NCBI GenBank assembly: GCA_019314525.1
Contig: JAFCZD010000002.1
Coordinates: 1-56,254, forward strand
DNA length: 56,254 nucleotides
DNA from: Deltaproteobacteria bacterium
Lineage (GTDB): Bacteria; Myxococcota_A; Polyangia; GCA-2747355
Direction: 5' to 3'
The notes beneath the pieces were generated by a model. That model did not search any database and was not told the origin of the DNA. It saw only the letters and a list, made by a program, of their open reading frames with translations. The translations under genes were made by a program, and so were the position numbers. Shown here one piece after another: positions 7,944-33,664 of the stretch (position 1 is the stretch's first letter; each line of letters starts with the position of its first letter).

Positions 7944-7954
7944 GAGAGCAATTG

Positions 7955-10900
7955 ATGACCCTCAAACCCCGCCGCGGCCATCAGCCCTGGTATCTACGCT
8001 TTCACGATCTGATGCCGCACCGTGTGCGTGAAGTGCTGCTCGTCTCGTCGCCCTATGATGCGTTCATCCTCGAACAGGATGGTCAGCTCACGGCGCGTGT
8101 CTTCCAAGAGTATTCCAACCTTGATCTCTCTCAGGCTCCCCGTATCACCCACGCCATCAGCGCCGAGCATGCCCTGACCCTGTTGAATGAGCGGCACTTC
8201 GATATGGTGATCACGATGCTGCACCTGGCAGGCATGGACGTCTCGGCCTTTGCGCGTCAGGTGAAGGTTCTCGACGGCCGCATGCCAGTGGTGGTCTTCG
8301 CGTTCTCCGAGGCGGAGCTGAGCTTCTTCGCCACCGAAATCATGACAGGGGATATCGATCGTGTCTTCGTCTGGACAGGCGATACACGCGTGCTCGTCGC
8401 GGCGATCAAGCTGCTCGAAGACCAAATGAACGTCGATCATGACACCCGCGCCTCAGGAGTGCGCGTGATCATCGTGGTGGAGGACTCCACCAGCCGCTAC
8501 TCATCCTTTCTTAGCCTCTTCTATGGTGAGCTGCTGCAGCAAGCGGGTTCGTTGATCGCCGAAGGGCTCAACGATCTGCACAAGCGCTTGCGCATGCGCG
8601 CGCGGCCAAGGGTCTTGCTCGCCACGAACTTCGAAGAGGCGATGGCATACTACGAGAAGTATCAACGCTATGTTTTTGGCGTGATCAGCGACGTTCGCTT
8701 CCCTCGGGACGGGCAGGAAGTGGCCGAGGCAGGTTTTGATCTGGTGCGCATCATTCGCCAAAATGACCCTGATCTGCCGATCCTCCTACAGTCTGCAGAG
8801 CAGGGCCTCCAAGCGCATGCCGAGGAGCTCCATGTAAGCTATGCTGAGAAGACCTCGCTGCAGCTGGCCCGCCAGATCCGCCACTTTTTGCAGGAGGGGC
8901 TCGGCTTTGGTGACTTCGTCTTCCGTCTCCCTGATCGCACAGAGGTTGGGCGGGCGCGAGACGTCTATGATATGGAGCGGCAGTTACCCAATGTGCCCGT
9001 GGAGTCCATCGAGTTTCACGCCAACAGCAATCACTTCTCTGTTTGGCTGATGGCCCGCAGCATGTTGCGGCTCGCAGAGCGTCTGCGCCCACGGCGTGTC
9101 GACGAGTTCAAAGACGCGGAGGCGATGCGCCAGCATTTGATCGCTGTTTTGCGCGAGGCGCGCATGCAAGAGCGTCAGGGAGCGATCACCGACTTTACGG
9201 CCCGCAAGGACGAGACGGAGACCCCCTTTGTGCGCTTGGGCAAAGGGTCCATTGGCGGCAAGGGGCGCGGCATCGCCTTCGCCAACTCGTTGATTGTTCG
9301 TCACGGTCTTGACAAGCAATACCCAGAGATGCGGGTCCGCATCCCACGTACGGTGGCCATTGGCACTGACGAATTCGACCGCTTCGTTGTGGAGAATGAC
9401 CTCGAGGATCTGCGTAAATGCTCGGATGACCGTGAGATCATCGCGCGCTTTCTCCGCGGGAGGCTCTCAGAGGAGGTGTTACGCGATCTGAAGATGGCGT
9501 GTCTCTGGGAGATGAAGGGCCCGCTAGCGGTCCGCTCGTCGAGCTTGCTCGAAGACTCACTGCTACACTCCTTCGCGGGCATTTACGCGACCTATATGCT
9601 GCCCAACAACCACCCAGACCCTTCTGTGCGTTTACGCGAACTCTGCCGCGCCGTGAAAGCAGTCTATGCCTCTACCTATTGCCAAGAGGCGCGCGCCTAC
9701 GCTGGGCTGACCTTCCCTGTGGACGAAGAGAAGATGGGGGTGGTGATTCAAGAGTGTGTGGGTGCGGCTCACGGGGAACGCTTCTACCCAAACTTTGCCG
9801 GGGTCGCGCTCTCTTATAACTACTATCCCTTCGGCCCGCAGCAGGCCGAAGAGGGCATCGTGGCTGTAGCTTTGGGCTTGGGGCAGATGGTGGTCTCTGG
9901 GGGAAATATGCTGCAGTTCTCCCCCGCCTCCCCGCAGATTTTGCCGCAATTTCCTTCGCCACAGCACTTTCTCAAATACTCACAGACTGAGTTTTTCGCG
10001 GTGGATCTGGGGCGGCCAACGGTAGATTTCTTCGCTGGCCCGGACTCCTCGGTGGGGCGCTTTGGTCTGAAGATGGCTGAGCAAGACGGCACCCTCTCGG
10101 CTGTAGGTAGCGTCTACCGGCCCAACGACGACACGATCCAGGACACGCTCCGCGAAAAAGGCCCACGCGTGGTGACCTTCAATAATGTCCTCAAGTGGGA
10201 GTCCATCCCCCTCGCCGCGGCTCTTGGTGAGATCTTGGAGGTGCTGGAGGAAGGCATCGGTCAACCGGTAGAGGTGGAGTTCGCGGTGGATATGGGGGAT
10301 TGGGGGCGCAACCCCTCGGAGAGAAAGAAGCGTCGCGATCCTTGCCTCTACATTCTGCAGGTGCGGCCCCAAGCGACGCGCTCTGCGAGCAACGCGGTTT
10401 TGCCCAAGGAGGTCCCACAGGAGTTTGTCTTCAGTCGCACCAGCATGGCGCTGGGCCATGGGATCATCGATGACATCACCGACATCCTCTACGTCAAAGA
10501 GGGGGTGGTTTCGGAGGTTGGGTCTCGGGAGGTCGCCCAGCAAGTGGGGGCTGTCAACGAGGAGCTGCGCGCGGCCGGGCGCCCTTACCTCTTGGTGGGC
10601 CCAGGACGCTGGGGGTCTTCAGACCCTTTCTTGGGCATCCCTGTGCATTGGCGGCAAATCTCCGGCGCAAGGGTGATTGTGGAGACCCCCTTCGAGGGGC
10701 GTTGCGTGGAGCCGTCTCAAGGGAGCCACTTCTTCCATAATATCACCACGCGCTCAGTGGGTTATTTGACGCTGGCTAAGCCTCCTGGTGGTGGAGGCGT
10801 GGAGCCCTCCTTCGACCGTGCGTGGGTCCAAGAGCAGCCGCTTATCGGCGAGACCTCGGCTCTGCGACACGTGCGCCTCAAGGCGCCCCTCACGGTCTAT

Positions 10901-10996
10901 ATTGATGCCCACGCCGGCCAGGCGGTGATCCACAAACCCAACGCTCCAACCCCAGGTGAGGTTGAGAGCTCAGTAATCATCCCCTCTCACGAGTAG
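7955..10996 (+). CDS. Two receiver-like domains fused to a PEP/pyruvate-binding (PPDK_N, ATP-grasp) domain; no phosphohistidine swivel or PEP-utiliser C-terminal domain recognised
   Basis: The N-terminus has two CheY-like segments (VLLVSSPYD...MVITMLHL and VIIVVEDS...VISDVRFP...PILLQSAE). The centre has GKGSIGGKGRGIAF and LAVRSSSLLEDS, typical of the PPDK_N nucleotide-binding domain. AGGAGAG lies 6 nt before ATG 7955. Confidence 0.75.
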   Translation: MTLKPRRGHQPWYLRFHDLMPHRVREVLLVSSPYDAFILEQDGQLTARVFQEYSNLDLSQAPRITHAISAEHALTLLNERHFDMVITMLHLAGMDVSAFARQVKVLDGRMPVVVFAFSEAELSFFATEIMTGDIDRVFVWTGDTRVLVAAIKLLEDQMNVDHDTRASGVRVIIVVEDSTSRYSSFLSLFYGELLQQAGSLIAEGLNDLHKRLRMRARPRVLLATNFEEAMAYYEKYQRYVFGVISDVRFPRDGQEVAEAGFDLVRIIRQNDPDLPILLQSAEQGLQAHAEELHVSYAEKTSLQLARQIRHFLQEGLGFGDFVFRLPDRTEVGRARDVYDMERQLPNVPVESIEFHANSNHFSVWLMARSMLRLAERLRPRRVDEFKDAEAMRQHLIAVLREARMQERQGAITDFTARKDETETPFVRLGKGSIGGKGRGIAFANSLIVRHGLDKQYPEMRVRIPRTVAIGTDEFDRFVVENDLEDLRKCSDDREIIARFLRGRLSEEVLRDLKMACLWEMKGPLAVRSSSLLEDSLLHSFAGIYATYMLPNNHPDPSVRLRELCRAVKAVYASTYCQEARAYAGLTFPVDEEKMGVVIQECVGAAHGERFYPNFAGVALSYNYYPFGPQQAEEGIVAVALGLGQMVVSGGNMLQFSPASPQILPQFPSPQHFLKYSQTEFFAVDLGRPTVDFFAGPDSSVGRFGLKMAEQDGTLSAVGSVYRPNDDTIQDTLREKGPRVVTFNNVLKWESIPLAAALGEILEVLEEGIGQPVEVEFAVDMGDWGRNPSERKKRRDPCLYILQVRPQATRSASNAVLPKEVPQEFVFSRTSMALGHGIIDDITDILYVKEGVVSEVGSREVAQQVGAVNEELRAAGRPYLLVGPGRWGSSDPFLGIPVHWRQISGARVIVETPFEGRCVEPSQGSHFFHNITTRSVGYLTLAKPPGGGGVEPSFDRAWVQEQPLIGETSALRHVRLKAPLTVYIDAHAGQAVIHKPNAPTPGEVESSVIIPSHE

Positions 10997-10998
10997 CG

Positions 10999-12471
10999 CT
11001 ATGGGCAGCAGGTGGCGCCGCGTAGGCTGAAGGTGCCCTCGTCGCAGCCGGTGGCTGGGACGAGCCCGCGTAGGGTCTGCCCCTCTTGTTGGCAGAGCTC
11101 CTGGCCCCACTGGAGCCAGAAGGGGAGCGCTTGGCACTCTTGAGCGGGCAGCGCAGAGCTGTCGGTTTGCTGGCAGATCTTGGTGTTGGGCTCGCAGCAG
11201 AAGCCAAGGGCAGCACGCCAGGTTAGCGTGGGTTGCATGCAGGGCTCTCGTGGCAAGAGGCCGGCCAGTGAGCGCTGCTCTCTCGCGCAAAGGAGGCTCG
11301 CGCTCTGCTGGAGTTCTTCGAAAGAGAGGCAGGCATCAGGGGCTAGGGCGTCAACTTCGACGCAGGGCTCTGGTGGGGGAGGCGGTGGTGGTTGGACGCT
11401 GGCCAAGGACTCCTGTCGGCAGCGTAGTGTTGGCATACCGCTGGCGGCCTGGAGCAGCTCACAAGATGCGAGCACGTCCAGGCCTACAAGGACTGCTCGA
11501 GAGCCGGAGAACCAGAGGTCACGCAGCTGCGATGGAGCGGGGAAGAGCCCCTCGATGGTGATCGCGGAGGGGACCTGCTGTGAGGAGAGCGTCGGGTCGA
11601 GTTGATAGAGTCCTGTCGCACTGAGGAGGTAGAGCATGGGGGGCTGGTTGGCCGTCGTGTTTAGGGCTAGTGCCTGCCAGTCTTGGTCAGGGAGGGGGAT
11701 TTCTTGCCATTGGTCTGGATTTTGCCACCAAACCAGCTGCTTCTGACCTAGCGCGAGCACGCTGCCATCGGCGAGCCCCACGACATCAACAAAAAGGTCG
11801 TCTCGTGGCCACGCCGTAGAGACCTTCTCAATATTTCCGATCCACAAGCCTGTCCCGGCTGCCACAACTCGGAGCCCATCGCTCCAGACAGCCCCTAGGG
11901 CGGCACCGATTCCATTGATAGAGGGCCAGGCGCTCACGCGCTCGCCTCGTATTTGCCAGCTTGAACTGACCAGCCCTGTTGGGCTGACGTCGCCCACCGT
12001 GACGAAGACCTCTCCAACGCTGGCGACATCATGGAGTGGTCCGCTCTCGCCGATGGAAAGTGGCATGAGCTGCTCTGTGCCAGAGAGCACGATGCCGACA
12101 CCACGATGTTCCCCCACGGCCACCACGCGTCCGTCCACTCCGAGGGCAACTCCCCGGAGGCTGGGGGTGACGTTCGGGTCCAAGGTCAGGGGCTGCCAGG
12201 TGCTGGTATCTCCTGTGGGTTTACACGCCACGACATTTTCGCCTGCAACACACACACGCGCCAGGCTGCCGGTCACCGCGTAGAGGGCAGGATTGCTGGG
12301 AAGGATTGAGCTGCTGTCAGATCTGTCGTTGGGGTTGCTATCGAGGCTGGGGTTCGCTTCGAGGGCTCCTCCATCCGGAGGGGGCAACACAGGCCGCAGC
12401 TGACTGTCAATGCAGCCCATGGGCAGGAGGCAGAGGAGTACGATGAGCGCGAAGAGGAGGGAGGGTCTCAC
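10999..12471 (-). CDS. Lipoprotein with beta-propeller-like repeats, a poly-Pro linker and a duplicated Cys-rich C-terminal module
   Basis: Lipobox LLPMGC. Recurrent hydrophobic-Gly strand motifs about every 45 aa (VVAVGE, VTVGD, VVAAGTG, VLALGQ). PPPPPPPEP linker. Two similar about 45-aa modules end in CCEP and CCP. GTG start. Lies 60 nt downstream of the cytochrome operon on the same strand. Confidence 0.6.
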   Translation of the reverse strand: MRPSLLFALIVLLCLLPMGCIDSQLRPVLPPPDGGALEANPSLDSNPNDRSDSSSILPSNPALYAVTGSLARVCVAGENVVACKPTGDTSTWQPLTLDPNVTPSLRGVALGVDGRVVAVGEHRGVGIVLSGTEQLMPLSIGESGPLHDVASVGEVFVTVGDVSPTGLVSSSWQIRGERVSAWPSINGIGAALGAVWSDGLRVVAAGTGLWIGNIEKVSTAWPRDDLFVDVVGLADGSVLALGQKQLVWWQNPDQWQEIPLPDQDWQALALNTTANQPPMLYLLSATGLYQLDPTLSSQQVPSAITIEGLFPAPSQLRDLWFSGSRAVLVGLDVLASCELLQAASGMPTLRCRQESLASVQPPPPPPPEPCVEVDALAPDACLSFEELQQSASLLCAREQRSLAGLLPREPCMQPTLTWRAALGFCCEPNTKICQQTDSSALPAQECQALPFWLQWGQELCQQEGQTLRGLVPATGCDEGTFSLRGATCCP

Positions 12472-12531
12472 AACCCTATTGTGTGCCGAGGAAGAGGCGG
12501 CGTCTAGGCGGCGATGCCTGAGGTGGTAGAG

Positions 12532-15500
12532 CTACTTCTCTTCTTCCTCCTCATAAAGCCCTTCTTCGTATTGGTCAGGCAGCTTTGGCTTCTCACCTGC
12601 GGGCATACTCGTGGGTTTCGCCGTCTTTGTTTTGTCCTTATCCTTGGCGTCAGCCTTGGTGTACGCGCCAGGCAGCGGGAGGTGACGCCCTCTGCCGCCC
12701 ACACGTGCTGGGTCACCCTTATAACCAAGGGCGGCGAAGTCGATCCACTTCTTCTCCGAGCGACCATGACATTGGCGACAAGGTCCCTTCTCGGTGGGGT
12801 GGAAGTCGGCCTTTGGCCCGTGGCAGCGCTTACAGGCTACTTCTTGTTCTTGGTGACAATCGGCACAGCGCAGCGCCTTCTTCGCGGGCACGACACCATG
12901 GTTCACTGCCCAATGCATGCGGGTGGACGTGAAGCCGACTTTGCCCGAGAAGGGGCGCTTGGCGGCTTTCATACCGTCGGTGATGGCGCGTTTCCAATCA
13001 AGGTGGCTCCAAAATCCCTCGAAGAGCTTGGGAATGGCAAACTCACGGCTCTCAGCGTCAATGGGCACTACGGCGCGATAGAGCTTGAAGGGCATAATTC
13101 GTGCTGTGGGATCCTCGAGGCTGCCCACAGGAGCGTTGAGGATGGTGTCACCCTCAGCGGTGGCCTTCTGGTTCACGAGGTGTCGTGTGATCTCACCGTT
13201 ATACCAGCGGTAGATCGGGCGCACGTTCTTACCCCACACAAACGTCCCCTTCTTCTTGGAGAAGGTAGGCATGCCAAACTCGTCCTTCTTCACGGGCAGA
13301 TCAGTGCCCGCCTTGGACCAGTCCCACGCCATCTTGGTGGGCGACTCACGCGCGAAAAGCGGTACGTGGCAGCTCTGACACGAGAGCGCGTCGAGGTGTT
13401 TGTCCAAGTGTACGCCCAGCAGCTTGCTCCGTTGGTGGGGGCGCTTGGAGTGGCAATCGGTGCAATGCACGCGCCCTTCGGCGGTGGGGATCGCGGTGGA
13501 TTGCCCGCTGATGCGATGGCGATGGGTCTTGTGGCAGTCCTGACAGAGCATCTTGGCGCGCCCCATGTGAACGTCGAAGTTGTCCTTGGGGTTGGCCAGG
13601 GCTGGCTCGAGGTCACCGTGTTTCACGTTGGCGGCCCCGCCACCATAGAAGTGGCAGCTGCCACAGGCTTTGCGCGTGGGGTGTCCAACATTGGCTGCGA
13701 CCTTGGCCAGGTCCACGGACGCCTCAGGGAAGCCGCCGTTCGCCGCGGCTTTGCGATAGGTGCCGGTGGTGTCATGACAGACGAGGCAGTCGATGTTCTT
13801 TGCGTCTTTGAAGTCGAAGGTGTCGTCTTTCCATCCGTAGCCTGCGTGACATTGTGAGCAGCGCTGTTCGTTGGATGTGATGTGGAGACAGAAGCCATTG
13901 CTGATGGTCGACTTGCCCAGATCGACCCTGTGGGCAGACCCGGCGGCGTCGGGGGAGGGGCCACGCCAGGTCCAATGGGCGGTGCGTAGCATGTCTTGGC
14001 CCTGTTGTTCATGACACTCCAGACATCGTGCCGTTACCGCGCGGGCGTCAGGCTTGCCCTCCAGCTTGACCAAGTCTTTGTGGTTGGGCACGCGACGTTT
14101 GTGGCAGGCCCCCGAGCAGGCCACGGGGGCGTTGGCGTCACGCGTACTACGGTGGCATTTGATGCACTGCTGATGGTAGGCGCCTTTGAGCCCAGGGCGC
14201 AGGGGATGGTCAGGTTCTGTGGGGCGTTGGTGGCAGGCCACACAAGATGAGGGTCGGAAGCTGGCGAGCTTGGAGCGATCGATAGCAACACCAACACGGT
14301 CCGTCTTTTGGCCTGGCTTCTGCGCCCGGTGGTGACATTGGGAGCAATCGCCACCCACGTGTAGGGAGTGTTCTCGGTGAGAGAATCGAACGGGGAGGAA
14401 GTCGTCAGTGCGCTCGTTCACCACCGGATGGGAGAGCGTCAACACTGAGGGCATTACCTCAGACGAAAAGGAGAGCGGCCCTTTCATTGGCGGCTTCGCG
14501 ATGGCCTTGGTCGACGCCTTGAAGCTCAGCGCCTTGAACGAGGTTTGCGTCTTTTCCACCGCGTCGCGATGCACATAGGAGTAGATGTCGATGAAGGCCA
14601 AGAGCACGAGCACGGCGACGGCGCGCATCACCCAGCCACCAAGGCGGGTACGCTGTTGCACTTGGATGTTGATTTCGCGCTCCACAGGATCGTCTTCGTC
14701 ACCGCCAGCGAGCACGGGGAAGTAGTGGGAGAAGAAGCGATAGAGGAAGATGATGGTGGCGATGAGGGCCGCGGTGACAGCGATTTCGCCAATGGCTGGA
14801 AAATATCCGCCCGTGCCATGAGCAGGGTGGTAGCCGGTGATAAAGACATTGATGCGGTTCATCACCAAGCCGACGATGATCATCGAGACAGTGATGAAGA
14901 GCCAACGTGGAGATTGGCGTACCGAGCGTTGCAGGAGCAGCACGAAGGGGATGATGACTCCAATGCCGATCTCGAAGAGGAAGGCGATGGTGTCTCGGGC
15001 GTTGAGGGTGAAGACCGAGAGGTCATTGCGATAGAAGAAGTCACCAAACTTCACGAGGGCGTAGAGGCCCAGTGTGTAGGGGATGAAGCGTGAGAGGGGG
15101 GTGAGGAGCTCCATCTCAGGGGGCTTTTTGTAGGCCTTAGAGGCGAAGATCGACTCGAAGATCACCATGGGAAAACCGATCATGATCGCCGAGAGCAAAA
15201 AGAGCAGCGGCATGATGGGTGTCCACCACAGCGGGCTGACTTTGGATGGCGCGATGAGCATCAGCGTGCCCAAAGAGGATTGGTGCATGAAGGAGAGCAT
15301 CACACCAGCGATGATGAAGATGGGCAGGATGCGGTGGACCCAGATCCGTAGCACACGCAGGACCTTTTGGAAGCGCATCAGGGGCCGCGTCCACCAATAG
15401 CCGTCGTCTATATGTTTCATCAGCCCGGCGAGGAGGGTCGGGGCAAACTCTACGGTGAGCACGGTGAGGTAGAACATCACGCACATGCCGACCTCGAAGA

Positions 15501-15894
15501 GCACGGAGTTGCCTTGCCAGTAGATCGCGGGATGCCAGATGTTGTAGTAGCGGCCGAGGTCGAAGAGCAGACCGGCGCCGACGAAGGAATAACCAAGCCA
15601 CGCGGTGAGCAGCGCAGGCCGTTCGAGGGCGTGGAAGCGCTTGGCACCAAAGATATTGATCAGCGCCGCGGTGGTGAACCCGCCGGCCGCGAGGGCGACG
15701 CCGCAGGCGACATCGATGCCAATCCATATACCCCAGGGGTATGCGTCGTTGAGGTTGGTGACAGCTCCGAGGCCGTTGATCATTCGTACCAGACCAAAGC
15801 CGTAGCCCACCACCATCACCGTGATCAGCAATAGTGTTCCAGTGGAGAGAAAGGGGACGCGCCCGTGTTGGGCAGCAGCGTCGTGGTTACTCAT
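12532..15894 (-). CDS. NrfD/HybB-type polytopic membrane (quinone-interacting) domain fused to a large periplasmic multihaem cytochrome c (c3-like tetrahaem, octahaem tetrathionate-reductase-family-like module, then 2 more haems)
   Basis: The N-terminal about 450 aa is highly hydrophobic and resembles NrfD/PsrC/HybB (YPWGIWIGIDVACGVALAAGGF..., SVLFEVGMCVMFYLTVLTVEF). The C-terminal about 650 aa has 13 CxxCH and 1 CxxxCH. The stretch HWTWRGP...NGFC...CSQCHAGYGWKD..FDF...DCLVCHD.TGTY...CGSCHFYGGGAANVKHGDLE...DVHMG..MLCQDCH resembles the OTR octahaem family. Start set to ATG 15894, which gives an ATGAGTAA overlap with the upstream stop. Confidence 0.8.
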   Translation of the reverse strand: MSNHDAAAQHGRVPFLSTGTLLLITVMVVGYGFGLVRMINGLGAVTNLNDAYPWGIWIGIDVACGVALAAGGFTTAALINIFGAKRFHALERPALLTAWLGYSFVGAGLLFDLGRYYNIWHPAIYWQGNSVLFEVGMCVMFYLTVLTVEFAPTLLAGLMKHIDDGYWWTRPLMRFQKVLRVLRIWVHRILPIFIIAGVMLSFMHQSSLGTLMLIAPSKVSPLWWTPIMPLLFLLSAIMIGFPMVIFESIFASKAYKKPPEMELLTPLSRFIPYTLGLYALVKFGDFFYRNDLSVFTLNARDTIAFLFEIGIGVIIPFVLLLQRSVRQSPRWLFITVSMIIVGLVMNRINVFITGYHPAHGTGGYFPAIGEIAVTAALIATIIFLYRFFSHYFPVLAGGDEDDPVEREINIQVQQRTRLGGWVMRAVAVLVLLAFIDIYSYVHRDAVEKTQTSFKALSFKASTKAIAKPPMKGPLSFSSEVMPSVLTLSHPVVNERTDDFLPVRFSHREHSLHVGGDCSQCHHRAQKPGQKTDRVGVAIDRSKLASFRPSSCVACHQRPTEPDHPLRPGLKGAYHQQCIKCHRSTRDANAPVACSGACHKRRVPNHKDLVKLEGKPDARAVTARCLECHEQQGQDMLRTAHWTWRGPSPDAAGSAHRVDLGKSTISNGFCLHITSNEQRCSQCHAGYGWKDDTFDFKDAKNIDCLVCHDTTGTYRKAAANGGFPEASVDLAKVAANVGHPTRKACGSCHFYGGGAANVKHGDLEPALANPKDNFDVHMGRAKMLCQDCHKTHRHRISGQSTAIPTAEGRVHCTDCHSKRPHQRSKLLGVHLDKHLDALSCQSCHVPLFARESPTKMAWDWSKAGTDLPVKKDEFGMPTFSKKKGTFVWGKNVRPIYRWYNGEITRHLVNQKATAEGDTILNAPVGSLEDPTARIMPFKLYRAVVPIDAESREFAIPKLFEGFWSHLDWKRAITDGMKAAKRPFSGKVGFTSTRMHWAVNHGVVPAKKALRCADCHQEQEVACKRCHGPKADFHPTEKGPCRQCHGRSEKKWIDFAALGYKGDPARVGGRGRHLPLPGAYTKADAKDKDKTKTAKPTSMPAGEKPKLPDQYEEGLYEEEEEK

Positions 15895-16852
15895 GGCTGC
15901 CTCCTTCCTCTTCTGCGTGTGGGTCAGCATCACTTGCATTCTTGTTCTTGCGGTTGGTGAACCACATGATGGCAGCTAAGCTGCCGTAGACGGCTACGGG
16001 CGCGGCGCCATAGCGGAAGATACCGTGTTGGATCGCCTCTGTTAAACGGGGGGGGGCTGTCTCCGGCAGCGGGAGGAGCCCAATTTCCTTGGGTGTTCGT
16101 CCCACGAGGTAGAGCCAGGAGGTGCCACCGACTTCTTTGGCACCATAGACCTCGGGATGGTAGCGGTCCGGCTGCTGGGCCACCCGTTTTCTGGCCAGAG
16201 CTAGGAGATCGGAGCGTGGGCCGAAGACGATGGCCTCCATGGGGCAGGCCGCGGCGCAGGCCGGGTCTGGGCCGTGCTCGCTACCGTCCGCACAATAGGT
16301 GCATTTGCGCACGCGTGGGGTGAGCGGATCGTCGTATTCGTAAGACGGGATCTCAAAGGGGCAAGCCACCATGCAGTAACGGCAGCCGATGCAGCGTTGG
16401 GCGTCGTAATCTACGGAGCCCGAAGCGTTCTTTGTGAGCGCTCCGACGATGCAAGCCGAAACACACGCAGGGTCCAGGCAGTGCATACACTGCAACTTGA
16501 CGAAGGTCTCATCGTGGTCTTGTTGCACCTGTGAGGGGGCGCCATGGTGGGCGTTGATCACCGTGAAAGCGTTGATGCTGGGACGTCGGGCGTCACGGAG
16601 CACCTCGCGATCACTAAAGGGCTTTTTGGGTTGGGCCAGCTTGTTGCGCTTGTTGCACGCCTCTTCACATTTGCGGCAGCCAACGCAGAGGGTGGTGTCT
16701 ACCAAACAGCCTACATGGGCGCTGGGCGCATCTTTGTCCTTGGCTGCCGTGGGTGCGGAGGCTGGCGCAGCGTTAGCCTTTGCTGCCCCCGCGGCAGCAC
16801 CCGCCGAGGTGAGCGCTAAGGCTGTCTTGAGGAAATCTCTCCGTGAACTCAT
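15887..16852 (-). CDS. Tat-exported 4Fe-4S ferredoxin-type subunit (HybA/NrfC/PsrB/HmcB-like) with C-terminal membrane anchor
   Basis: Twin-arginine signal MSSRRDFLKTALALTSAGAAAGAAKA. Several Cys clusters (CVGCRKCEEAC, CMHCLDPACVSAC, CIGCRYCMVACP, CTYCAD...CAAACP). C-terminal hydrophobic helix AAPVAVYGSLAAIMWF. Confidence 0.85.
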   Translation of the reverse strand: MSSRRDFLKTALALTSAGAAAGAAKANAAPASAPTAAKDKDAPSAHVGCLVDTTLCVGCRKCEEACNKRNKLAQPKKPFSDREVLRDARRPSINAFTVINAHHGAPSQVQQDHDETFVKLQCMHCLDPACVSACIVGALTKNASGSVDYDAQRCIGCRYCMVACPFEIPSYEYDDPLTPRVRKCTYCADGSEHGPDPACAAACPMEAIVFGPRSDLLALARKRVAQQPDRYHPEVYGAKEVGGTSWLYLVGRTPKEIGLLPLPETAPPRLTEAIQHGIFRYGAAPVAVYGSLAAIMWFTNRKNKNASDADPHAEEEGGSHE

Positions 16853-16970: not shown

Positions 16971-18086
16971 TTAGCGGCAGCCCATGCCGCCGACGTGACA
17001 ACTGAGGCACATCGGGTTCTTGCGGCACTCGTCGGCTTTGTTGCGCCATTTGAAGCCTGGTGTGTGTGGGTTTCCGCCCGACCCGCCTACCTGGTGGCAG
17101 CGCACGCAATTGGAGGCTGCGCCTTGATCGTGGCAGCTGGCGCAGCGAGATGAGTCCCGTCGCGCGAGCCGCCCGTGAAACCCAGGTTGCCCGGGTTGCA
17201 TCCATTGTCCGCCATGAACCTTGCGCAGGTTGGTGCCCAAGCGGGCTTTGCCCACAGGTGCGCTCACGCCCTGCATCTCGTGGCAAGTCGTGCAGTGTTT
17301 GGCGCCGTGGCATTTGCGGCAGGTATCAGGTCGCGCTCGCGCGTCGCGCGAGTGGCGGCCGAGGTAGTCTCCACGATGGATGTAACGTGCGTTGACGCGC
17401 TCGGGGTAACGAAGAGAGAGGGGCATCGCCGCCGTCTTAGCGTGGCAGTCGCCGCAGAACGTTTGGTCATGACATTGCGCGCAGCGCTGGGTGTTGCGCG
17501 CGAGGGGACCATGGCGCTTGAGGAAGTCCCCCTGGTGGCCAAGGCTGGCCACGGCCTGCAGCGTTTGTCCTCGCAGGTTGGTGTGGCATTTATCACAGGC
17601 TTGGGAGTTCAGGTCGCTCTTGTGGCAGCTGTCGGTGCACACCGCCATCTTGCCCAAGAGCTTGGTGCCGGCTTTCTTGGCGGTGTAGGCGGCTGCATGG
17701 CAATGTTTGCAACCGCCTTTGTCTTTGAGGTGCGGCTCGTGGCTTTTGTGCGAGAAGATCAGCTGGCGGTTAACCCGCGTAAGCTCGATGTTCTTGTCTG
17801 TGCCAACGTGGCACAGCTTGCACTCTTTTTTATCTGTGGTGGCGTCTTCATGGCAGTCGGCGCAGCCCCCGTGGTTCTTTTTGGGGATGAACTTGCCCAG
17901 GGTAGGGCCTGTGCTCTTGGCGATCTCACCATGACAATCACCACAGTCCCCTTGCTCCACGTGAAAGGCGTGCGAGAACTTGAGCACGCTAGAGAGCTGG
18001 AGGCTGTGTTTCACTTTGACAGTGGCGCAAGCGACGATCGCGACGCTGGCGGCGACCATAATCCAGTATCGGCGGCTGAGCTTCAC
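16971..18086 (-). CDS. Multihaem cytochrome c (12 CxxCH and 1 CxxxCH), c3/c7-type repeats, signal peptide or possible lipobox
   Basis: Motifs counted in the translation: CGDCH, CADCH, CKLCH, CKHCH, CTDSCH, CDKCH, CAQCH, CGDCH, CRKCH, CTTCH, CASCH, CVRCH, CLSCH. N-terminus MKLSRRYWIMVAASVAIVAC. The GTG start overlaps the upstream stop (GTGA). Confidence 0.85.
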   Translation of the reverse strand: MKLSRRYWIMVAASVAIVACATVKVKHSLQLSSVLKFSHAFHVEQGDCGDCHGEIAKSTGPTLGKFIPKKNHGGCADCHEDATTDKKECKLCHVGTDKNIELTRVNRQLIFSHKSHEPHLKDKGGCKHCHAAAYTAKKAGTKLLGKMAVCTDSCHKSDLNSQACDKCHTNLRGQTLQAVASLGHQGDFLKRHGPLARNTQRCAQCHDQTFCGDCHAKTAAMPLSLRYPERVNARYIHRGDYLGRHSRDARARPDTCRKCHGAKHCTTCHEMQGVSAPVGKARLGTNLRKVHGGQWMQPGQPGFHGRLARRDSSRCASCHDQGAASNCVRCHQVGGSGGNPHTPGFKWRNKADECRKNPMCLSCHVGGMGCR

Positions 18087-19495
18087 AGCGCACCTCCCGG
18101 GAGATAAGCGAAAGAGGGGCTCGCGCTGCGGCTGACGCGCACAGGGCCTCCCGTCGGGTTGCTATCGATATCCCAGCTCAGGCGCACCATGAAGGTGCCC
18201 ATTTGTGCGAGCAGGGGAGTGACACCTGCTTGGCCACCCGCCATCAACGTCAAGTTGTCGCGGATGGCGTAGCCAAGATACGCTGCACCGGTGAAGGAGA
18301 GGCGTGAGTCATCAGCGATGACATAGCTCGCCACCTCATCACGCGCGTCGAGGTAAAAAAGGTCGACGTCAACGGTGGCAGAGAGCCCTCGGACGAGGCG
18401 TGCGGAGCCACCCACGCGACCACGGATGTAGCCACCGTCTGGGGCGCCCACGCGCTCCACCAATGCTGAGACCCGATAGCGGCGCTCGAGGCCAAAGCGG
18501 GCGTCGGCGCGCAGCAGGCCACGAAGCTCGAGTTGTCCATCGTCACAGCTCTGCCCACCATACTCCTTGAGGTTGCAGGTCTCACCATAGTAGCGACCAC
18601 CAGCCTCGGCTGAGAGAGAGAGCCAACGTTTGGGTGACCAATAGCTCTCCAAGAAGGCTTCCTGGTGCTTGATGTCGGAGAAGATAGAAAAGATTGAGGT
18701 TCGTGGAATGAAAAGGTCCGGCTCGGAAAAGCGGTAGCCAGCCATGAGGGAGAGGTTCCGTCGCAGGTCAAAACGCACACCTCCGCGAGCCTCCTTAAGA
18801 CGCTCAGCGATCATGCTGAAGGTTCCGTCAGAAAAGATCGTCAACTTTGAGTTGGGGTGTACAGCCGCATCCCAGCCCAACTCCTGAAAGGCTGTATGGG
18901 CGTCATAGGCTTTGTGGCGGAAGGAGACCCCAGCGCCAACAAACTCTTTGAAGCGGTAGCCCACACGGCCACCCACGACCCAGTTGCCCCCATATTTGTA
19001 GTCGTTGGCGTTGGTCGGCCAGCTCTGGCGAAGAAAACGAATCCCGGTGGGTACCCCTCCAAAAGCTGTGACGTCGAGGCCAAAGGGCGACCGGTAGTGA
19101 ACGTAACCTCCGTCTAGCTGCTCATAGACCGAGGGGCCAGCAGAGACGAATTGTCGGCCAACTCGCAGCTGCAAACCGCGAAACATGCCCTTTTCATGGG
19201 CGCGATAGGAGAGCAGAAAGACGTTCACGTCGCCGTTGGCGCGCTGCTCATCGAGGGGGACGTCGTTGAGGTGTACCTGTCCCCAAAGAGAAGCGACGAG
19301 GGAGAGGCCTTGGACGCCAAGGTCATCCGCGCGCAAGCCAATGAGCTCATAAAAGGGGACATGGTGTGAGGTGTCGTTCGCCCCTGGCAAGACATAGCCG
19401 CGCACATGGGTGCTGGTGTTCAGGCGAAAGTTGGTTGCCCAAGCCGTGGAGCTAGTGCTGGCGAAAAGGAGGAGGGTCACCATCAGCGCTCTCAT
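18083..19495 (-). CDS. Predicted outer-membrane beta-barrel (porin-like) protein
   Basis: Cleavable signal MRALMVTLLLFASTSSTAWA. No Cys or haem motifs. Alternating hydrophobic/polar strands with aromatic girdles run throughout (YRFSEPDLF, FLESYWSP, LSLSAEAGGRYY, ATVDVDLFYL, FTGAAYLGYAI, FMVRLSWD). Embedded between two cytochrome genes, with 1-nt and 4-nt start/stop overlaps. Confidence 0.65.
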   Translation of the reverse strand: MRALMVTLLLFASTSSTAWATNFRLNTSTHVRGYVLPGANDTSHHVPFYELIGLRADDLGVQGLSLVASLWGQVHLNDVPLDEQRANGDVNVFLLSYRAHEKGMFRGLQLRVGRQFVSAGPSVYEQLDGGYVHYRSPFGLDVTAFGGVPTGIRFLRQSWPTNANDYKYGGNWVVGGRVGYRFKEFVGAGVSFRHKAYDAHTAFQELGWDAAVHPNSKLTIFSDGTFSMIAERLKEARGGVRFDLRRNLSLMAGYRFSEPDLFIPRTSIFSIFSDIKHQEAFLESYWSPKRWLSLSAEAGGRYYGETCNLKEYGGQSCDDGQLELRGLLRADARFGLERRYRVSALVERVGAPDGGYIRGRVGGSARLVRGLSATVDVDLFYLDARDEVASYVIADDSRLSFTGAAYLGYAIRDNLTLMAGGQAGVTPLLAQMGTFMVRLSWDIDSNPTGGPVRVSRSASPSFAYLPGGAL

Positions 19496-20601
19496 CAGAA
19501 CACCTCCACTTTGCCGTTGATGTGGGTCATGGGATCGAGTTGTCCATCCTTGTAGCCCTTGATGTGGCAGTTCTCACAGATGGGCTCATTGGGATGAGCT
19601 TTGTTCGTGAGGGTCTTCGCCGGAGGGTTGCCGTGGCAGCTACCGCAAACAAGGCCACCCTCGATCTTCGCCGTCCATGTCCAGGTGATGTCTGGGTTGG
19701 CACCATCGAGGGCGTGGCAGTAGACGTTGGAGCAGGTGTGTGTGGCGGCATCATAGCTTGGTAGTAGATCGACATCTGGGGAGAGGGTCTTGCCGCGGGC
19801 CATGTTGCCGAAGGTCAGTTCGGCGCGCAGGTCGCTCTGGCGCTGCTCGTCGTCAAAGAGGTGGCCTGGAGCGTAAAAGGCAGGGCTTGGAAGGGTGTGA
19901 CATTCACGACAGGCCACAGGTTGGCCGAGCGTGGCGTTGAGGTGAATGGCATGGAGGCCAACGCTGGCCGAGGAGAAGCTGCCCATCAGATCCGAGGGGG
20001 GATTGGCAGCTTCCTTATTGCCATCGCCATGACAGGTGCTGCAGCCCGTGGGACCCTCGGTGTGGCAGGTCATGCAGCTCCCGGCGTTGCCGCGGCCCGC
20101 GAAGTCCTCGCCGTGACACACTTGGCATTGACGCATATCCCAGGCGCTGGCTCGCAACCAGCCACCGTGGAAATTATTGGCGCCACGGTCATGGGGCAGC
20201 ATCCATCCAGCTGGGTGAACATGATCGGCGCTCGCGCTGAAATAGGCCATGCGTTCTTCAACGACCCAGCGCGTCAAGAGGTCACCGTCGTTTGTGTCCA
20301 GCAACGACGCATGGGTCTCGTCGCCAAGCACTGCGATCAGCTTGCTTTGGACATCCCCAGGGATCGCGTTAGGCACGTCGTCCGAGCCCCGACGGGCAAC
20401 CCCACGCCAGTTGGAGAGATCGTAGCTCCCTTCCATGGTGGTCGCGCTATGGCAGGTGACACACGTTCGTTCCAGCAATGGAGCGACGTCATCCACATAG
20501 CTCAGGGCGGGAATCCGGATTAGGTCTTGGTCCTTGCTGCGCACCTCGCCACAGCTGATGGCGGTGATGGCTAACAAGAGCCAGGGGAGTCGACGCTTCA
20601 T
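19495..20601 (-). CDS. Lipoprotein multihaem cytochrome c (7 CxxCH and 1 CxxxxCH) with a Geobacter-type CxxxxCH...CxxCH domain
   Basis: Lipobox LLLAITAISC. Motifs CVTCH, CQVCH, CMTCH, CSTCH, CRECH, CSNVYCH, CGSCHGNPP, CENCH. The pair CSNVYCH...W.W...CGSCHGNPP matches the pattern I recall for the Geobacter CxxxxCH/CxxCH domain. GAGAGGGA Shine-Dalgarno lies 6 nt before the ATG. Confidence 0.8.
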   Translation of the reverse strand: MKRRLPWLLLAITAISCGEVRSKDQDLIRIPALSYVDDVAPLLERTCVTCHSATTMEGSYDLSNWRGVARRGSDDVPNAIPGDVQSKLIAVLGDETHASLLDTNDGDLLTRWVVEERMAYFSASADHVHPAGWMLPHDRGANNFHGGWLRASAWDMRQCQVCHGEDFAGRGNAGSCMTCHTEGPTGCSTCHGDGNKEAANPPSDLMGSFSSASVGLHAIHLNATLGQPVACRECHTLPSPAFYAPGHLFDDEQRQSDLRAELTFGNMARGKTLSPDVDLLPSYDAATHTCSNVYCHALDGANPDITWTWTAKIEGGLVCGSCHGNPPAKTLTNKAHPNEPICENCHIKGYKDGQLDPMTHINGKVEVF

Positions 20602-31100: not shown

Positions 31101-32390
31101 TCAGGGCGCGAGAACCACCAGGCGGATGACGTGGTTGTTGACGTCAGAGACGTAGAGGCGCGTGCCAGCTTCATTGACGACCGCCGAGAAGGGGGCGAAG
31201 AACTGGGCAGTCTTGGCGTCACCATCTTTGTAGCCTGGGATGCCAGAGCCGGCGATGGTCGTCACGTGGTTGTCCTCGCGCCTGCGTAGGCGGTGGTTGG
31301 CCGAGTCGACGATATAGACGCGGCCGGCGCCATCGACGGCGACGGAGCTAGGCACACGAAAGAGCGCGACGTTGTAGTAGCCATCGAGGAAGCCGGGTTT
31401 GCCGCTGATACCCGCGATGCTCGCGATGCTATTGCCCGACGCCCGCAGGATGCGGTGGTTCTGACTCTCAGCGACAAAAACTTGCCCGGCGGCGTCCACA
31501 GCCACGCCGGTGGTGCCAACGAAGTTGTAGTATCCATCGGCACTGAGGTTCGTCACCTGCGAGTTGGCGGTGATCTTGCGCACCCGGTTGTTGAACGTAT
31601 CGGCGACGTAGAGCACGCCAAAGCCGTCCACCGTGATGTCGCGCGGAGAGTTGAATGTCGCCTTCACGCCCCAATCGTTGGTGCCGCCTGCCGAGCCAGA
31701 CCCGGCGAAGGTCGTGACGGTTCCGCTGCGTAGGCGGCGGATGCGATGGTTCCCCGTGTCCGCGATGTAGACGGTGCCTTTGCTGTCGATGGTTACACCG
31801 CTCGGCGCGAAGAAGCGCGCCTCGTTGAGGGCAGCGCCGTCAAAGAACCCTGGGTTGCCTGTGCCTGCGATGGTGGTGAGTTCACCGCCCTCTAGCTTAC
31901 GAATACGGTGGTTTTCCCGGTCGGCGATGTAGAGCACGCCATCTTTTAGCGCGAGACCGGAGGGCGAGTTCAGCTGGGCGGCGAGGGCAGGGCCGTCGGC
32001 GAACCCTGGCTCGCCGTTGCCCACCAAGGTGATTACACAGTTGACACAGCCGGGCCCCTGGTCGGGATCGCCAGTCGCATCCGTGGCGTCTGTGGCGATA
32101 TCTATCGACAGGTCGGCGACTGCTGCATCAAGGGGAGCATCGGCCCCCTGATCTACAGGCGGCCATGGCGGTAGGTCGCGGGGCGGAAAGGGCCCATCAG
32201 GGGGGCTCACACAAAGATTCGAAAGGCACCAGAGCCCAGGATCGCAGGTGCCATTGGGATAGCAGCCCTCCCCCTCACCACCGAAAGTCGTCACGGCCAG
32301 ATCATCGCTGGAGCAAGCGGGGAGTAGGATCGCGAGGCTGCAGAATAGCAGGAAGCGTGCTTTCGAGCGATGCATCGCGTTCTCCTTCAT
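31101..32390 (-). CDS. NHL-repeat beta-propeller lipoprotein
   Basis: Lipobox ILLPAC. Cys-rich knot CYPNGTCDPGLWCLSNLC. Repeated (Y/F)(I/V)AD..NHRIR motifs occur 6 times. ATGA overlap with the upstream paralogue. Confidence 0.8.
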   Translation of the reverse strand: MKENAMHRSKARFLLFCSLAILLPACSSDDLAVTTFGGEGEGCYPNGTCDPGLWCLSNLCVSPPDGPFPPRDLPPWPPVDQGADAPLDAAVADLSIDIATDATDATGDPDQGPGCVNCVITLVGNGEPGFADGPALAAQLNSPSGLALKDGVLYIADRENHRIRKLEGGELTTIAGTGNPGFFDGAALNEARFFAPSGVTIDSKGTVYIADTGNHRIRRLRSGTVTTFAGSGSAGGTNDWGVKATFNSPRDITVDGFGVLYVADTFNNRVRKITANSQVTNLSADGYYNFVGTTGVAVDAAGQVFVAESQNHRILRASGNSIASIAGISGKPGFLDGYYNVALFRVPSSVAVDGAGRVYIVDSANHRLRRREDNHVTTIAGSGIPGYKDGDAKTAQFFAPFSAVVNEAGTRLYVSDVNNHVIRLVVLAP

Positions 32391-33664
32391 GGGGCGATCT
32401 CCCGGATGATGTGGTTACCGGTGTCGGCTACGAAGACATGCCCCCCGTCGGTGACGGTGATGGCAACGGGCCCGCGGAAGCGTGCGTCGTTGAGGGGGCC
32501 GTCGGCGTAGCCTGCGCTCGCGCCGACGAAGGTCTGGACCAGGTCGTTTTTCAGCACCCTGATGCGATGATTTCCCGTATCCGCGATGTAGAGGCTGCCG
32601 GAGAAGGGTTCGTAGGCCAAGCTCTGAGGAGTGCTGAATTGTGCAAGGTGCGCCTCTCCATCGAAGAGACCTGGCGTGTTGGCTTTGCCAGCCATGTGAT
32701 CCACGAGGGTGCCCACCATACGGACGAGATAGTGACCCCCGGTGACAGCCGCCAAGATCGCCCCCGAGGGGTCGTTGGTCACGCCGGCTGGGCGCGACAG
32801 GTTAGTTCCCACCGTGAAGACCTGGCCACCACTGATGCGGCGCAGTTGGTTGTTGTCTCGATCAGCGACCCAGACGTCGCCAAAGACATCTACTGCGACA
32901 TCCACCGGATTGTTGAACGTCGCCTGCCCCTGGTAACCGTCCTTGCTGCCGACGGCGCCAGTGCCCGCAAAGGTGGTTACAGTCTGATCAGAAGAGATGC
33001 GCCGAATGCTGTGGTTCGCTCGATCGGCGACGAAGAGGCACTGTGTGCGTGGATCGTAGGCGAGGCCACAGGGATCGGAAAAGAGCGCCAGGGAGGCCAC
33101 GCCATCCATGCGACCGCTGACGCTTCCCGCGTAGGTGCTGACAACACCTTTTTCGATGCGTCGAATGCGGTGGTTAGCGCTGTCAGCGACGAAGACCACG
33201 CCGGCTGGCGTGACCGCCACCCCACGAGGGCTCGAAAATTGGGCTTGGTTTGCGGGGCCATCCTGGTTGCCGGGGCTGCCCACGAGGCCTGCCACGGTGC
33301 GCACGAGGCCTTGAAAGGCCAGATCCTGCCGAGCGAGATCCGAGTCGCCCAGATCTGAGTCACCCAGATCCTTCAGCAGGAGCGACTCTCCCATACCATC
33401 ACCAACGCTCGCCATATCTCCATCGGTGTGGCGCATGTCCCCAGGAGGGATCGCCCCATCGAATGGCGCTTGGTCGACGAAGCTGCCGTCGCCATCTCCA
33501 CGGCACCAGCCCTCTGTGCAAAGCAGGCTCTGGTTGCAGGTTTGGTTGGGATAGCAGGGCTGGTCTGCGCTACCCATCCTGATCTCTGTGCTGCCGCTAG
33601 AGCGCGCGCATCCCGCTGCTCCTCCGAGTAGGAGAAATACCAACAAATGCCATCCCATAACCAC
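32387..33664 (-). CDS. NHL-repeat beta-propeller lipoprotein (tandem paralogue)
   Basis: Signal/lipobox LLLGGAAGC. CYPNQTCNQSLLCTEGWC. Six AD..NH.IR repeats. Confidence 0.8.
   Translation of the reverse strand: MVMGWHLLVFLLLGGAAGCARSSGSTEIRMGSADQPCYPNQTCNQSLLCTEGWCRGDGDGSFVDQAPFDGAIPPGDMRHTDGDMASVGDGMGESLLLKDLGDSDLGDSDLARQDLAFQGLVRTVAGLVGSPGNQDGPANQAQFSSPRGVAVTPAGVVFVADSANHRIRRIEKGVVSTYAGSVSGRMDGVASLALFSDPCGLAYDPRTQCLFVADRANHSIRRISSDQTVTTFAGTGAVGSKDGYQGQATFNNPVDVAVDVFGDVWVADRDNNQLRRISGGQVFTVGTNLSRPAGVTNDPSGAILAAVTGGHYLVRMVGTLVDHMAGKANTPGLFDGEAHLAQFSTPQSLAYEPFSGSLYIADTGNHRIRVLKNDLVQTFVGASAGYADGPLNDARFRGPVAITVTDGGHVFVADTGNHIIREIAP

Follow-up and report, generated by a model that had tools for sequence, protein, structure and literature searches.

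A HybB/HmcC-type NrfD-like membrane domain fused to an OTR-family multihaem cytochrome in a Polyangia-type contig

Here we analysed a 56,254-nt stretch of DNA from a Deltaproteobacteria bacterium (assembly GCA_019314525.1, contig JAFCZD010000002.1; hereafter the window) and found that a single gene on its reverse strand, at 12532..15894 (-), joins an NrfD/HybB-type quinone-site membrane domain to a multihaem cytochrome whose core belongs to the octahaem tetrathionate reductase (OTR) family. In a review of the membrane family, NrfD-type subunits are presented as separate, cofactor-free quinone-binding anchors, and fusions are unmentioned (PMC8076601). The protein described here departs from that picture: the polypeptide that holds the membrane domain also carries 14 haem c motifs, and the membrane domain itself is without one. 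We propose that it is the large subunit of a two-subunit, membrane-bound (mena)quinol:acceptor oxidoreductase, and that its main role in this organism is probably that of an inner-membrane quinol oxidase feeding an outer-membrane conduit.

The open reading frame (ORF) at 12532..15939 (-) is open over 1135 codons. The gene almost certainly starts at the ATG at 15894 (M16), because this codon has an AGGAGG Shine–Dalgarno motif 5 nt upstream, gives an 8-nt overlap with the stop of the preceding iron–sulphur (FeS) gene and lies at the aligned position at which the homologues begin. The product is then 1120 amino acids (aa) long; residue numbers below follow the 1135-aa ORF, and subtracting 15 gives the count from M16. 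From the N to the C terminus, the protein comprises a 10-helix HybB/HmcC-type NrfD domain, an 11th transmembrane helix, a c3-like tetrahaem domain, an OTR octahaem module and an insert with two haems. An earlier reading of the window, made from the letters and the ORF list (hereafter the sequence-only reading), had counted 13 CxxCH motifs and one CxxxCH. A recount of the translation gives the same numbers, with CxxCH at aa 532, 566, 592, 639, 694, 718, 759, 799, 826, 854, 1025, 1036 and 1054, and the single CxxxCH at aa 608.

To find proteins of the same architecture, 5.8 billion proteins were searched. This yielded at least 120 full-length homologues (1050–1123 aa, 46–62% identity), all of them with both PF03916 (NrfD) and PF11783; the window's own protein is not among the homologues listed, although the collection does contain its contig, represented by the barrel protein P0269 from a contig of 56,254 bases. 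The homologues are drawn from many samples, several phyla and contigs of up to 6 Mb, and the full-length form makes up about five clusters at 50% clustering. Judged by contig and source names, the fusion occurs in Acidobacteriota, Thermoanaerobaculia, Krumholzibacteriia, Binatia and deltaproteobacterial metagenome-assembled genomes (MAGs), with the closest relatives on Polyangia-labelled contigs. The source labels are of two kinds, 'Ni/Fe-hydrogenase cytochrome b subunit' and 'tetrathionate reductase family octaheme c-type cytochrome'. Proteins made of NrfD and c3 parts (~560–670 aa) and of c3 and OTR parts (~590–720 aa) were returned by the same search. The claim that one gene joins an NrfD/HybB-type membrane domain to a multihaem cytochrome is borne out by these homologues and by profile matches to both halves.

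An assembly or frameshift error that joins two separate genes would give the same appearance, and unfused genes that overlap at an ATGA do exist in one related locus (L019), where a single-base error would mimic the fusion. However, the identical junction, with the same domain set around it, recurs in the full-length homologues, at least 120 independent proteins stemming from numerous samples, assemblers and phyla, and the junction region, a charged loop followed by helix 11, is conserved at the protein level. The artefact, which the sequence-only reading had named among the findings that would overturn it, is effectively refuted.

The membrane domain (aa 27–422; 14674..15861 (-)) has 10 transmembrane helices, the number expected of the HybB/HmcC subgroup with its two four-helix bundles plus helices A and B, and is placed in the HybB/HmcC type by hidden Markov models, by alignment with Escherichia coli HybB and by Foldseek. 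PF03916 matches aa 60–370 at 63.6 bits against a cutoff of 25.8. The HybB model NF008133 covers aa 27–410 (model positions 8–374 of 377) at 324 bits, which misses its equivalog cutoff of 450; the HmcC model covers aa 35–411 at 265 bits, and the NrfD equivalog model scores the domain at 24 bits. E. coli HybB is collinear with the domain (32% identity, E = 8e-60, BLASTP) up to HybB residue 388 of 392, corresponding to about aa 422 of the fusion protein. A family review lists 25 conserved HybB residues of the quinone site and the two half-channels (PMC8076601), of which 15 are identical in the fusion and 3 conservatively replaced. HybB R89, Y99, E148 and H184, whose mutation impairs E. coli hydrogenase 2 (Hyd-2) (PMC8076601), are all four kept, as R107, Y117, E164 and H219. 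The domain is thereby predicted to hold a quinone site and a proton path. No hydrogenase genes were found in the window cluster or in the related loci inspected.

The full protein was modelled with AlphaFold2 (AF2) on an alignment of 24 sequences; the model has a mean pLDDT of 62 and is good for the membrane part and most of the OTR part. In Foldseek comparisons, the membrane part resembles ActC of alternative complex III (6btm_C, 8k9e_C, 6lod_C and 6f0k_C; TM-score 0.61–0.66, E down to 3e-10), and the ten-helix ActC/ActF subunits overall give TM-scores of 0.53–0.66. A sequence search of the membrane domain against PDB chains gave no match. The NrfD-type assignment of the sequence-only reading is upheld by the HybB score, the PF03916 match above cutoff and the ActC fold.

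HybB-type subunits have 10 helices, and a cytoplasmic (N-side) C terminus is stated only for the 9-helix TtrC (PMC8076601); by analogy, we extend this location to the 10-helix type. HybB homology ends at about aa 422 and is followed by a charged loop (GGDEDDPVEREINIQVQQR) of ~25 residues, assigned to the cytoplasm, and then by an extra 11th transmembrane helix (aa 431–459; 14563..14649 (-)). The latter is indicated by hydropathy, by a hydrophobic segment conserved in the family, by comparison with the unfused locus L019 and by the AF2 model, which has ten helices before residue 410 and a long eleventh at 418–469. The view that the last helix of the HybB-like domain runs straight into the cytochrome was therefore wrong: the charged loop and the extra helix cross the membrane between them. 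The orientation is N-in, with 14 Lys/Arg in cytoplasmic loops versus 2 in periplasmic loops. With 11 helices and this orientation, the ~650 haem-bearing residues are therefore periplasmic, as had been supposed. Attachment of c-type haem requires this location.

The position of helix 11 is that of the cleavable signal peptide of an unfused cytochrome (P0130), and the fusion might accordingly exist at the gene level only, with helix 11 acting as an internal signal peptide that signal peptidase cuts to free a 13- or 14-haem cytochrome. We consider such cleavage very unlikely, since neither the window protein nor the family consensus has an Ala-x-Ala site after helix 11, the helix is long in the AF2 model and it ends at a nearly invariant His457, suggesting a retained structural role. 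This His (codon at about 14569..14571 (-)) lies at the periplasmic end of the helix and is conserved in at least 90% of family members.

Beyond the helix, the c3-like tetrahaem domain (aa 505–620; 14080..14427 (-)) contains the haem motifs at 532, 566 and 592 and the CxxxCH at 608. Models of the c3/c7 type (PF14522 and PF02085) cover these residues and all four motifs, in agreement with the sequence-only reading. Among named families, HmcA (NF045713) matches best, with its C-terminal tetrahaem domain, and the PDB matches 1z1n, 1h29 and 19hc correspond to C-terminal domains of 16-haem Hmc and nine-haem Nhc cytochromes.

The middle eight haems (motifs at 639, 694, 718, 759, 799, 826, 854 and 1025) form the OTR-family module (aa 631–1033; 12841..14049 (-)). 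TIGR04315 matches it at 497.1 bits against a curated cutoff of 375, over model positions 15–431 of 440. Shewanella OTR (1sp3) aligns with the C-terminal half of the fusion over the whole enzyme (E = 3e-120, ~50% identity), and Foldseek superposes the OTR part on 1sp3 with a TM-score of 0.79. What had been noted as a resemblance to the OTR family can thus be stated as membership. In OTR, a Lys that is not part of the CxxCH motif serves as a ligand of the catalytic haem (PMC13562315). The active-site Lys that the sequence-only reading proposed to look for is conserved as K676 (codon at 13912..13914 (-)), which aligns with the GK-motif Lys of 1sp3 and of other standalone OTRs and, from this alignment, is taken to be the proximal ligand of the catalytic haem. 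In the numbering of Mowat et al. (2004), the OTR ligand is presumably Lys56. The module would be a putative tetrathionate, nitrite or hydroxylamine reductase.

The two further haems had been described as extra. They are indeed present, haem 13 at C1036 and haem 14 at C1054, but do not form an appended domain: they sit in an insert of ~35 aa (12745..12852 (-)) that follows haem motif 8 of the OTR module and precedes the C-terminal motif conserved in OTRs, IDFxALGYxGDP (IDFAALGYKGDP; (I/L)D(F/W)xALGYxGDP in the family). This insert is missing from canonical OTRs and present in unfused 13-haem c3+OTR cytochromes. The protein ends in a low-complexity Lys/Pro/Asp tail (12535..12687 (-)) that closes with PDQYEEGLY followed by EEEEEK. 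The tail is as rich in charged residues as described before and is variable and clade-specific, but it carries a conserved end motif, PDQY[EQ][ED]GL, which the window protein has in common only with P0001, P0002 and P0121 (in the form PKQYQDGL in P0121).

Conservation was assessed in an alignment of 24 fusion-family members. Thirteen haem motifs are invariant: the four of the c3 domain, the eight of the OTR module and C1036. Haem 14 occurs at its position in the alignment only in the window protein, P0001 and P0002, and is kept too by P0121, a pruned variant described below; P0013, P0016 and P0020 have a further CxxCH in a different insertion. The fourth motif is CxxCH in most relatives, the CxxxCH form occurring only in the window's clade. 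The OTR Lys is kept in the window's clade and many others and is replaced in 8 of the 24 rows (P0027, P0031, P0057, P0063, P0083, P0090, P0106 and P0112), mostly by Leu and in P0090 by Val. Because the eight haem motifs are all kept in these rows, the active-site haem must, judging from the alignment, have a different ligation there.

Directly upstream of the fusion gene, 15887..16852 (-) encodes a HybA/HmcB-like FeS subunit with four [4Fe-4S] clusters, a twin-arginine translocation (Tat) signal (SRRDFLK) and a C-terminal anchor in the form of a hydrophobic C-tail. It scores 312 bits against HmcB (cutoff 420) and 261.4 bits against HybA (cutoff 263), both below the equivalog cutoffs, and E. 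coli HybA is collinear with it (32% identity, E = 9e-58). The protein has 17 Cys; three of its Cys-cluster motifs were detected by program and the fourth was read by eye. The conserved unit is a two-gene FeS + fusion operon, because the FeS gene directly precedes and overlaps the fusion gene in the window and in every related locus inspected (L007, L008, L011, L012, L013, L015, L017 and L018); with L019 counted in, adjacency and overlap hold in ten loci, the window among them. The FeS subunit is predicted from this arrangement to be an obligatory, translationally coupled partner of the fusion protein.

These components allow us to propose an electron path, by analogy with the Hyd-2, Hmc/Nhc, Nrf and Mcc systems. 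The polypeptide would leave the cytoplasm by the Sec route and receive its haems in the periplasm. The N-terminal 10-helix domain would provide the quinone site and the proton path; quinol would be oxidised there, and the HybA-like subunit would relay the electrons over its four FeS clusters to the c3-like tetrahaem domain, a homologue of the Hmc/Nhc domain that works with HmcB/C, and from its haems into the eight-haem OTR chain. They could leave this chain to a small periplasmic substrate at the Lys-ligated haem or, alternatively, exit to other cytochromes by way of the one or two additional haems near the C terminus. In the window, the OTR module would serve as a wire and possibly as an enzyme too. 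By the same analogy, electrons almost certainly do not move directly from the NrfD domain to a haem but travel through the FeS partner. The sequence-only reading had suggested that a terminal reductase or electron distributor is tethered covalently to the quinol-oxidising site. The tether stands, with an extra helix at the junction; a direct handover of electrons across it almost certainly does not.

Where the electrons go is suggested by three genes upstream of the pair, separated from it by a 119-nt gap in the window and overlapping one another by 1–4 nt. The nearest (16971..18086 (-)) encodes a probably periplasmic cytochrome c that has 13 haem motifs, begins with a hydrophobic or lipobox-like segment and is matched by PF14522 and by an MtrC/MtrF domain II/IV model. 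The second (18083..19495 (-)) encodes a 470-aa outer-membrane β-barrel of ~24–26 strands with a signal peptide. Its AF2 model is all-β (pLDDT 79, pTM 0.72) and all of its Foldseek matches are outer-membrane barrels; the barrel has no Pfam/NCBIfam match, and no MtrB structure is among its top Foldseek matches. The third (19495..20601 (-)) encodes a lipoprotein cytochrome c with 8 haem motifs, a lipobox (AISC) and a CxxxxCH/CxxCH domain (TIGR01904, PF09698), which is probably surface-exposed. In architecture only, this trio resembles a porin–cytochrome (Pcc-type) conduit; at the sequence level it showed no homology to the components known from Geobacter or Shewanella. On either side, the cluster is bordered in the window by housekeeping genes unrelated to it.

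Five related loci have the same trio conserved. It occurs together with the FeS + fusion pair in L008, L015 and L017, which are exactly the loci whose fusion has the tail motif, and all four PDQYxxGL-tail proteins (those of the window and of these three loci) are therefore encoded beside it. In L015, the fusion gene (12638..15391) encodes the pruned variant P0121 (917 aa), whose membrane part is ~75% identical to that of the window protein. P0121 is without the OTR signature motifs, the Lys and the β-rich PF11783 part, its OTR module having shrunk to a brief row of CxxCH motifs; it keeps the NrfD domain, helix 11 and the c3 domain in nearly identical form, and also the tail and the haems at the C terminus. 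In L014, a CbcL-like fusion of multihaem c and PF01292 cytochrome b (11888..13918) stands beside the same trio in place of the pair, and in L008 a CbcL-like protein (13761..16046) is encoded near the trio together with the NrfD fusion; the two CbcL-like proteins, of 676 and 761 aa respectively, are on Polyangia MAG contigs. Geobacter CbcL is an inner-membrane multihaem cytochrome c fused to a HydC/FdnI-type dihaem cytochrome b (PMC12133095). Like CbcL, the window protein fuses a quinol-oxidising membrane domain to a periplasmic multihaem c and is associated with a Pcc-type trio; the two membrane domains are unrelated, however, being a PF01292 cytochrome b in CbcL and of the cofactor-less NrfD type in the window, and CbcL, which can do without an FeS subunit, lacks an enzyme-like module.

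Four observations lead us to favour a conduit role in the window's clade, namely that the fusion gene is constantly accompanied by the trio, that one haem and the tail are specific to the clade, that a CbcL-like protein substitutes for the fusion in L014 and that a pruned variant exists; they suggest that the fusion feeds an extracellular electron-transfer conduit. More tentatively, the complex could belong to an as yet unrecognised class of quinol oxidase that serves extracellular electron transfer at the inner membrane of Polyangia-type Myxococcota, mechanistically distinct from CymA, ImcH, CbcL and CbcBA and built on an NrfD-type, potentially proton-translocating module. On this bolder and only possible scheme, a live enzyme site would be retained within the wire, and electrons would be split between a soluble sulphur or nitrogen acceptor at the Lys-ligated haem and the conduit, reached through the C-terminal haems and a conserved docking tail.

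A different end point is conceivable. The protein may be a terminal reductase dedicated to a soluble substrate in the periplasm (for example tetrathionate, nitrite, hydroxylamine or a different sulphur or nitrogen oxyanion), a covalently anchored analogue of NrfABCD or MccACD, with the trio unrelated or loosely connected. The complete OTR module, above the TIGR04315 cutoff and with its proximal Lys kept, is consistent with this, as is the 119-nt gap between trio and pair. Most family members, moreover, are isolated FeS + fusion pairs, an ArsR/HTH_5 regulator precedes the pair in three loci (in one of which a Pyr_redox_2 gene follows it), and the standalone OTR gene of another locus (L005) lies beside sulphur-transport and rhodanese genes. 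For the window we find this account doubtful. Haem 14 and the tail motif are clade-specific and all four genes with the motif adjoin the trio; one of these four, encoding P0121, has lost the catalytic features and kept the rest. In addition, the activities known for OTR are all from in vitro work, and which substrate it uses physiologically is itself unsettled. In the family at large, where the pair has no such neighbours, reduction of a soluble acceptor is the simpler reading.

Several observations weigh against the reading that we favour. In a close relative with a barrel of 83% identity, the trio is directly followed by homologues of the window's downstream genes, with no pair, and the association of trio and pair is therefore not obligatory. 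In most phyla the pair stands alone, without cytochrome or barrel neighbours (L007, L011, L012, L013 and L018), which makes the OTR module more likely as the end point family-wide. The intact catalytic module of the window protein argues against a pure wire. Replacement of the Lys by Leu in a large Acidobacteriota clade means that the chemistry is non-uniform across the family. In the c3 domain and at the C terminus, the quality of the AF2 model is too low (pLDDT <50) for it to reveal the geometry of the haem chain and of the FeS-to-haem contacts or the docking site of the FeS subunit. Lastly, sequence does not set the direction of electron flow, and the complexes of HybB and HmcC, to which the membrane domain is most closely related, send electrons towards quinone or the cytoplasm.

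This last point leads to the opposite direction, in which periplasmic or extracellular electrons would enter the quinone pool as in Hyd-2 (HybOCAB), Qrc and Hmc, with Fe(II) or an electrode donating through the conduit, or thiosulfate or hydroxylamine at the OTR haem. The FeS subunit, closest to HybA/HmcB, shares this affinity with complexes that pass electrons to quinone or cytoplasm, and the residues of the proton path are conserved. Even so, we judge reverse flow improbable: NrfD-type modules are reversible as a class, so that homology says little on direction, OTR-family enzymes have been characterised as reductases, and no carbon-fixation or Fe(II)-oxidation genes neighbour the locus. Quinol oxidation that feeds the conduit continues to be the role we favour for the window protein.

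The components of the fusion are also found as separate genes. A 2024 survey of Tat tail-anchored proteins describes a module of a tail-anchored ferredoxin, a HybB-like quinol oxidase and an OTR-family octahaem cytochrome, with examples in Desulfosarcina ovata and Humidesulfovibrio mexicanus, and gives neither a function nor fused forms (PMC10924467). The unfused module is also present in L019 and L006. In L019 (GCA_030156255.1), an FeS gene (304 aa) is followed by an NrfD gene (388 aa) and a c3+OTR cytochrome gene (719 aa, 13 haems), joined by ATGA overlaps. The NrfD protein is 47% identical to the window domain and ends at the point where HybB homology ends in the window protein; the cytochrome has its own Sec signal peptide, and helix 11 of the fusion occupies the position of this signal peptide. 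A one-base change at the ATGA junction would merge the two reading frames. Comparison with this locus shows how the fusion arose, by merger of adjacent, ATGA-overlapping hybB-like and cytochrome genes with conversion of the signal peptide into helix 11. As a simple merger within a pre-existing three-gene module, the fusion is less exotic than a new design would be. Our literature search turned up no description of the fusion; subscription journals were thinly covered, so this is absence of evidence only.

Among more distant OTR-containing loci, obtained by searching contigs with the fusion protein alone (L001–L006), the OTR partners are cytochrome b561 in L004 and the unfused FeS and NrfD proteins in L006. 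In L005, from a Chlorobiota MAG, a standalone OTR gene (9758..13003) is followed by two YeeE/YedE-like sulphur-transport genes, one with a rhodanese domain. This context hints at a link of the OTR family to sulphur-compound metabolism.

By descent, the system is a fused form of the HybA/HybB/OTR module, and Hmc/Nhc are the nearest characterised relatives of its FeS, membrane and c3 parts. The unfused module has the same three components in the same order, and the L019 cytochrome has the same 13-haem c3+OTR layout. In the window, by contrast, membrane subunit and cytochrome are one polypeptide with an 11th helix, and the window's clade adds the 14th haem and the conserved tail. In the Hmc and Nhc systems of sulfate reducers (HmcABC and NhcABCD), HmcB is the best match of the FeS subunit, HmcC corresponds to the membrane domain and the C-terminal domain of HmcA/NhcA to the c3 part. 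The window proteins score below the equivalog cutoffs, however, HmcD/E/F genes are lacking, and the cytochrome is fused to the membrane subunit and to an OTR extension.

With NrfABCD of E. coli and MccACD/SirACD, the window system shares the logic of quinol, an NrfD-type subunit, four [4Fe-4S] clusters, NrfB-like haems and a catalytic multihaem protein with a Lys-ligated (Nrf) or otherwise special haem. In those systems all subunits are separate, NrfD/MccD have 8 helices instead of the 10 in the window, and the catalytic part is NrfA or MccA in place of OTR. Shewanella oneidensis OTR (1sp3) has in common with the window protein the eight haem motifs, the GK Lys and the C-terminal motif, there LDWxALGYxGDP, but it is a soluble periplasmic monomer with no dedicated quinol dehydrogenase, no insert for haems 13 and 14 and no N-terminal c3 domain.

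The family shows that one polypeptide can combine the membrane anchor with a 13- to 14-haem enzyme or wire, and the origin of the fusion can be reconstructed, from an ATGA-overlapping gene pair that merged and a signal peptide that was recruited as the 11th helix. It bears on the questions of how electrons exit from an NrfC/NrfD-type module into multihaem cytochromes and whether proton movement is coupled to this. Because the fusion keeps quinol site, FeS partner and haem chain close together and at a set stoichiometry, the complex is attractive for electron cryo-microscopy. For the OTR family, it provides a physiological context in the form of a dedicated quinol dehydrogenase; in Polyangia-like genomes, it is a candidate inner-membrane entry point for extracellular electron transfer, and the pruned P0121 is a natural test of which of the two functions, catalysis or wiring, is under selection. 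The family is found widely in metagenomes from soil and sediment (Acidobacteriota, Binatia, Krumholzibacteriia and Thermoanaerobaculia), where it is currently mislabelled as a hydrogenase cytochrome b subunit.

Other genes of the window were noted alongside. Sixty-one nucleotides downstream of the fusion gene, 10999..12471 (-) encodes a predicted lipoprotein of 490 aa with 18 Cys, a lipobox (PMGC) and no Pfam/NCBIfam match. In the close relative that lacks the pair, a 502-aa gene without a Pfam match, its presumed homologue, directly follows the trio; the 490-aa lipoprotein may thus go with the trio rather than with the pair. The next gene, 7952..10996 (+), encodes a 1014-aa protein with a response-regulator receiver domain and a PPDK_N domain, of the PEP-utilising, ATP-binding kind, and is syntenic with the cytochrome cluster in the same relative. 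Farther away, 35125..36111 (-) encodes a second multihaem cytochrome (328 aa, 7 CxxCH), upstream of a Mur-ligase-type gene and of genes for two tandem NHL-repeat β-propeller proteins; the span 31101..33664 (-) was noted along with it. A second porin–cytochrome cluster at this site was considered and rejected, as the 470-aa neighbour is of the Mur-ligase type and not a barrel. Last, 41462..42877 (-) encodes the selenocysteine synthase SelA (E = 3e-148), and the organism probably makes selenoproteins.

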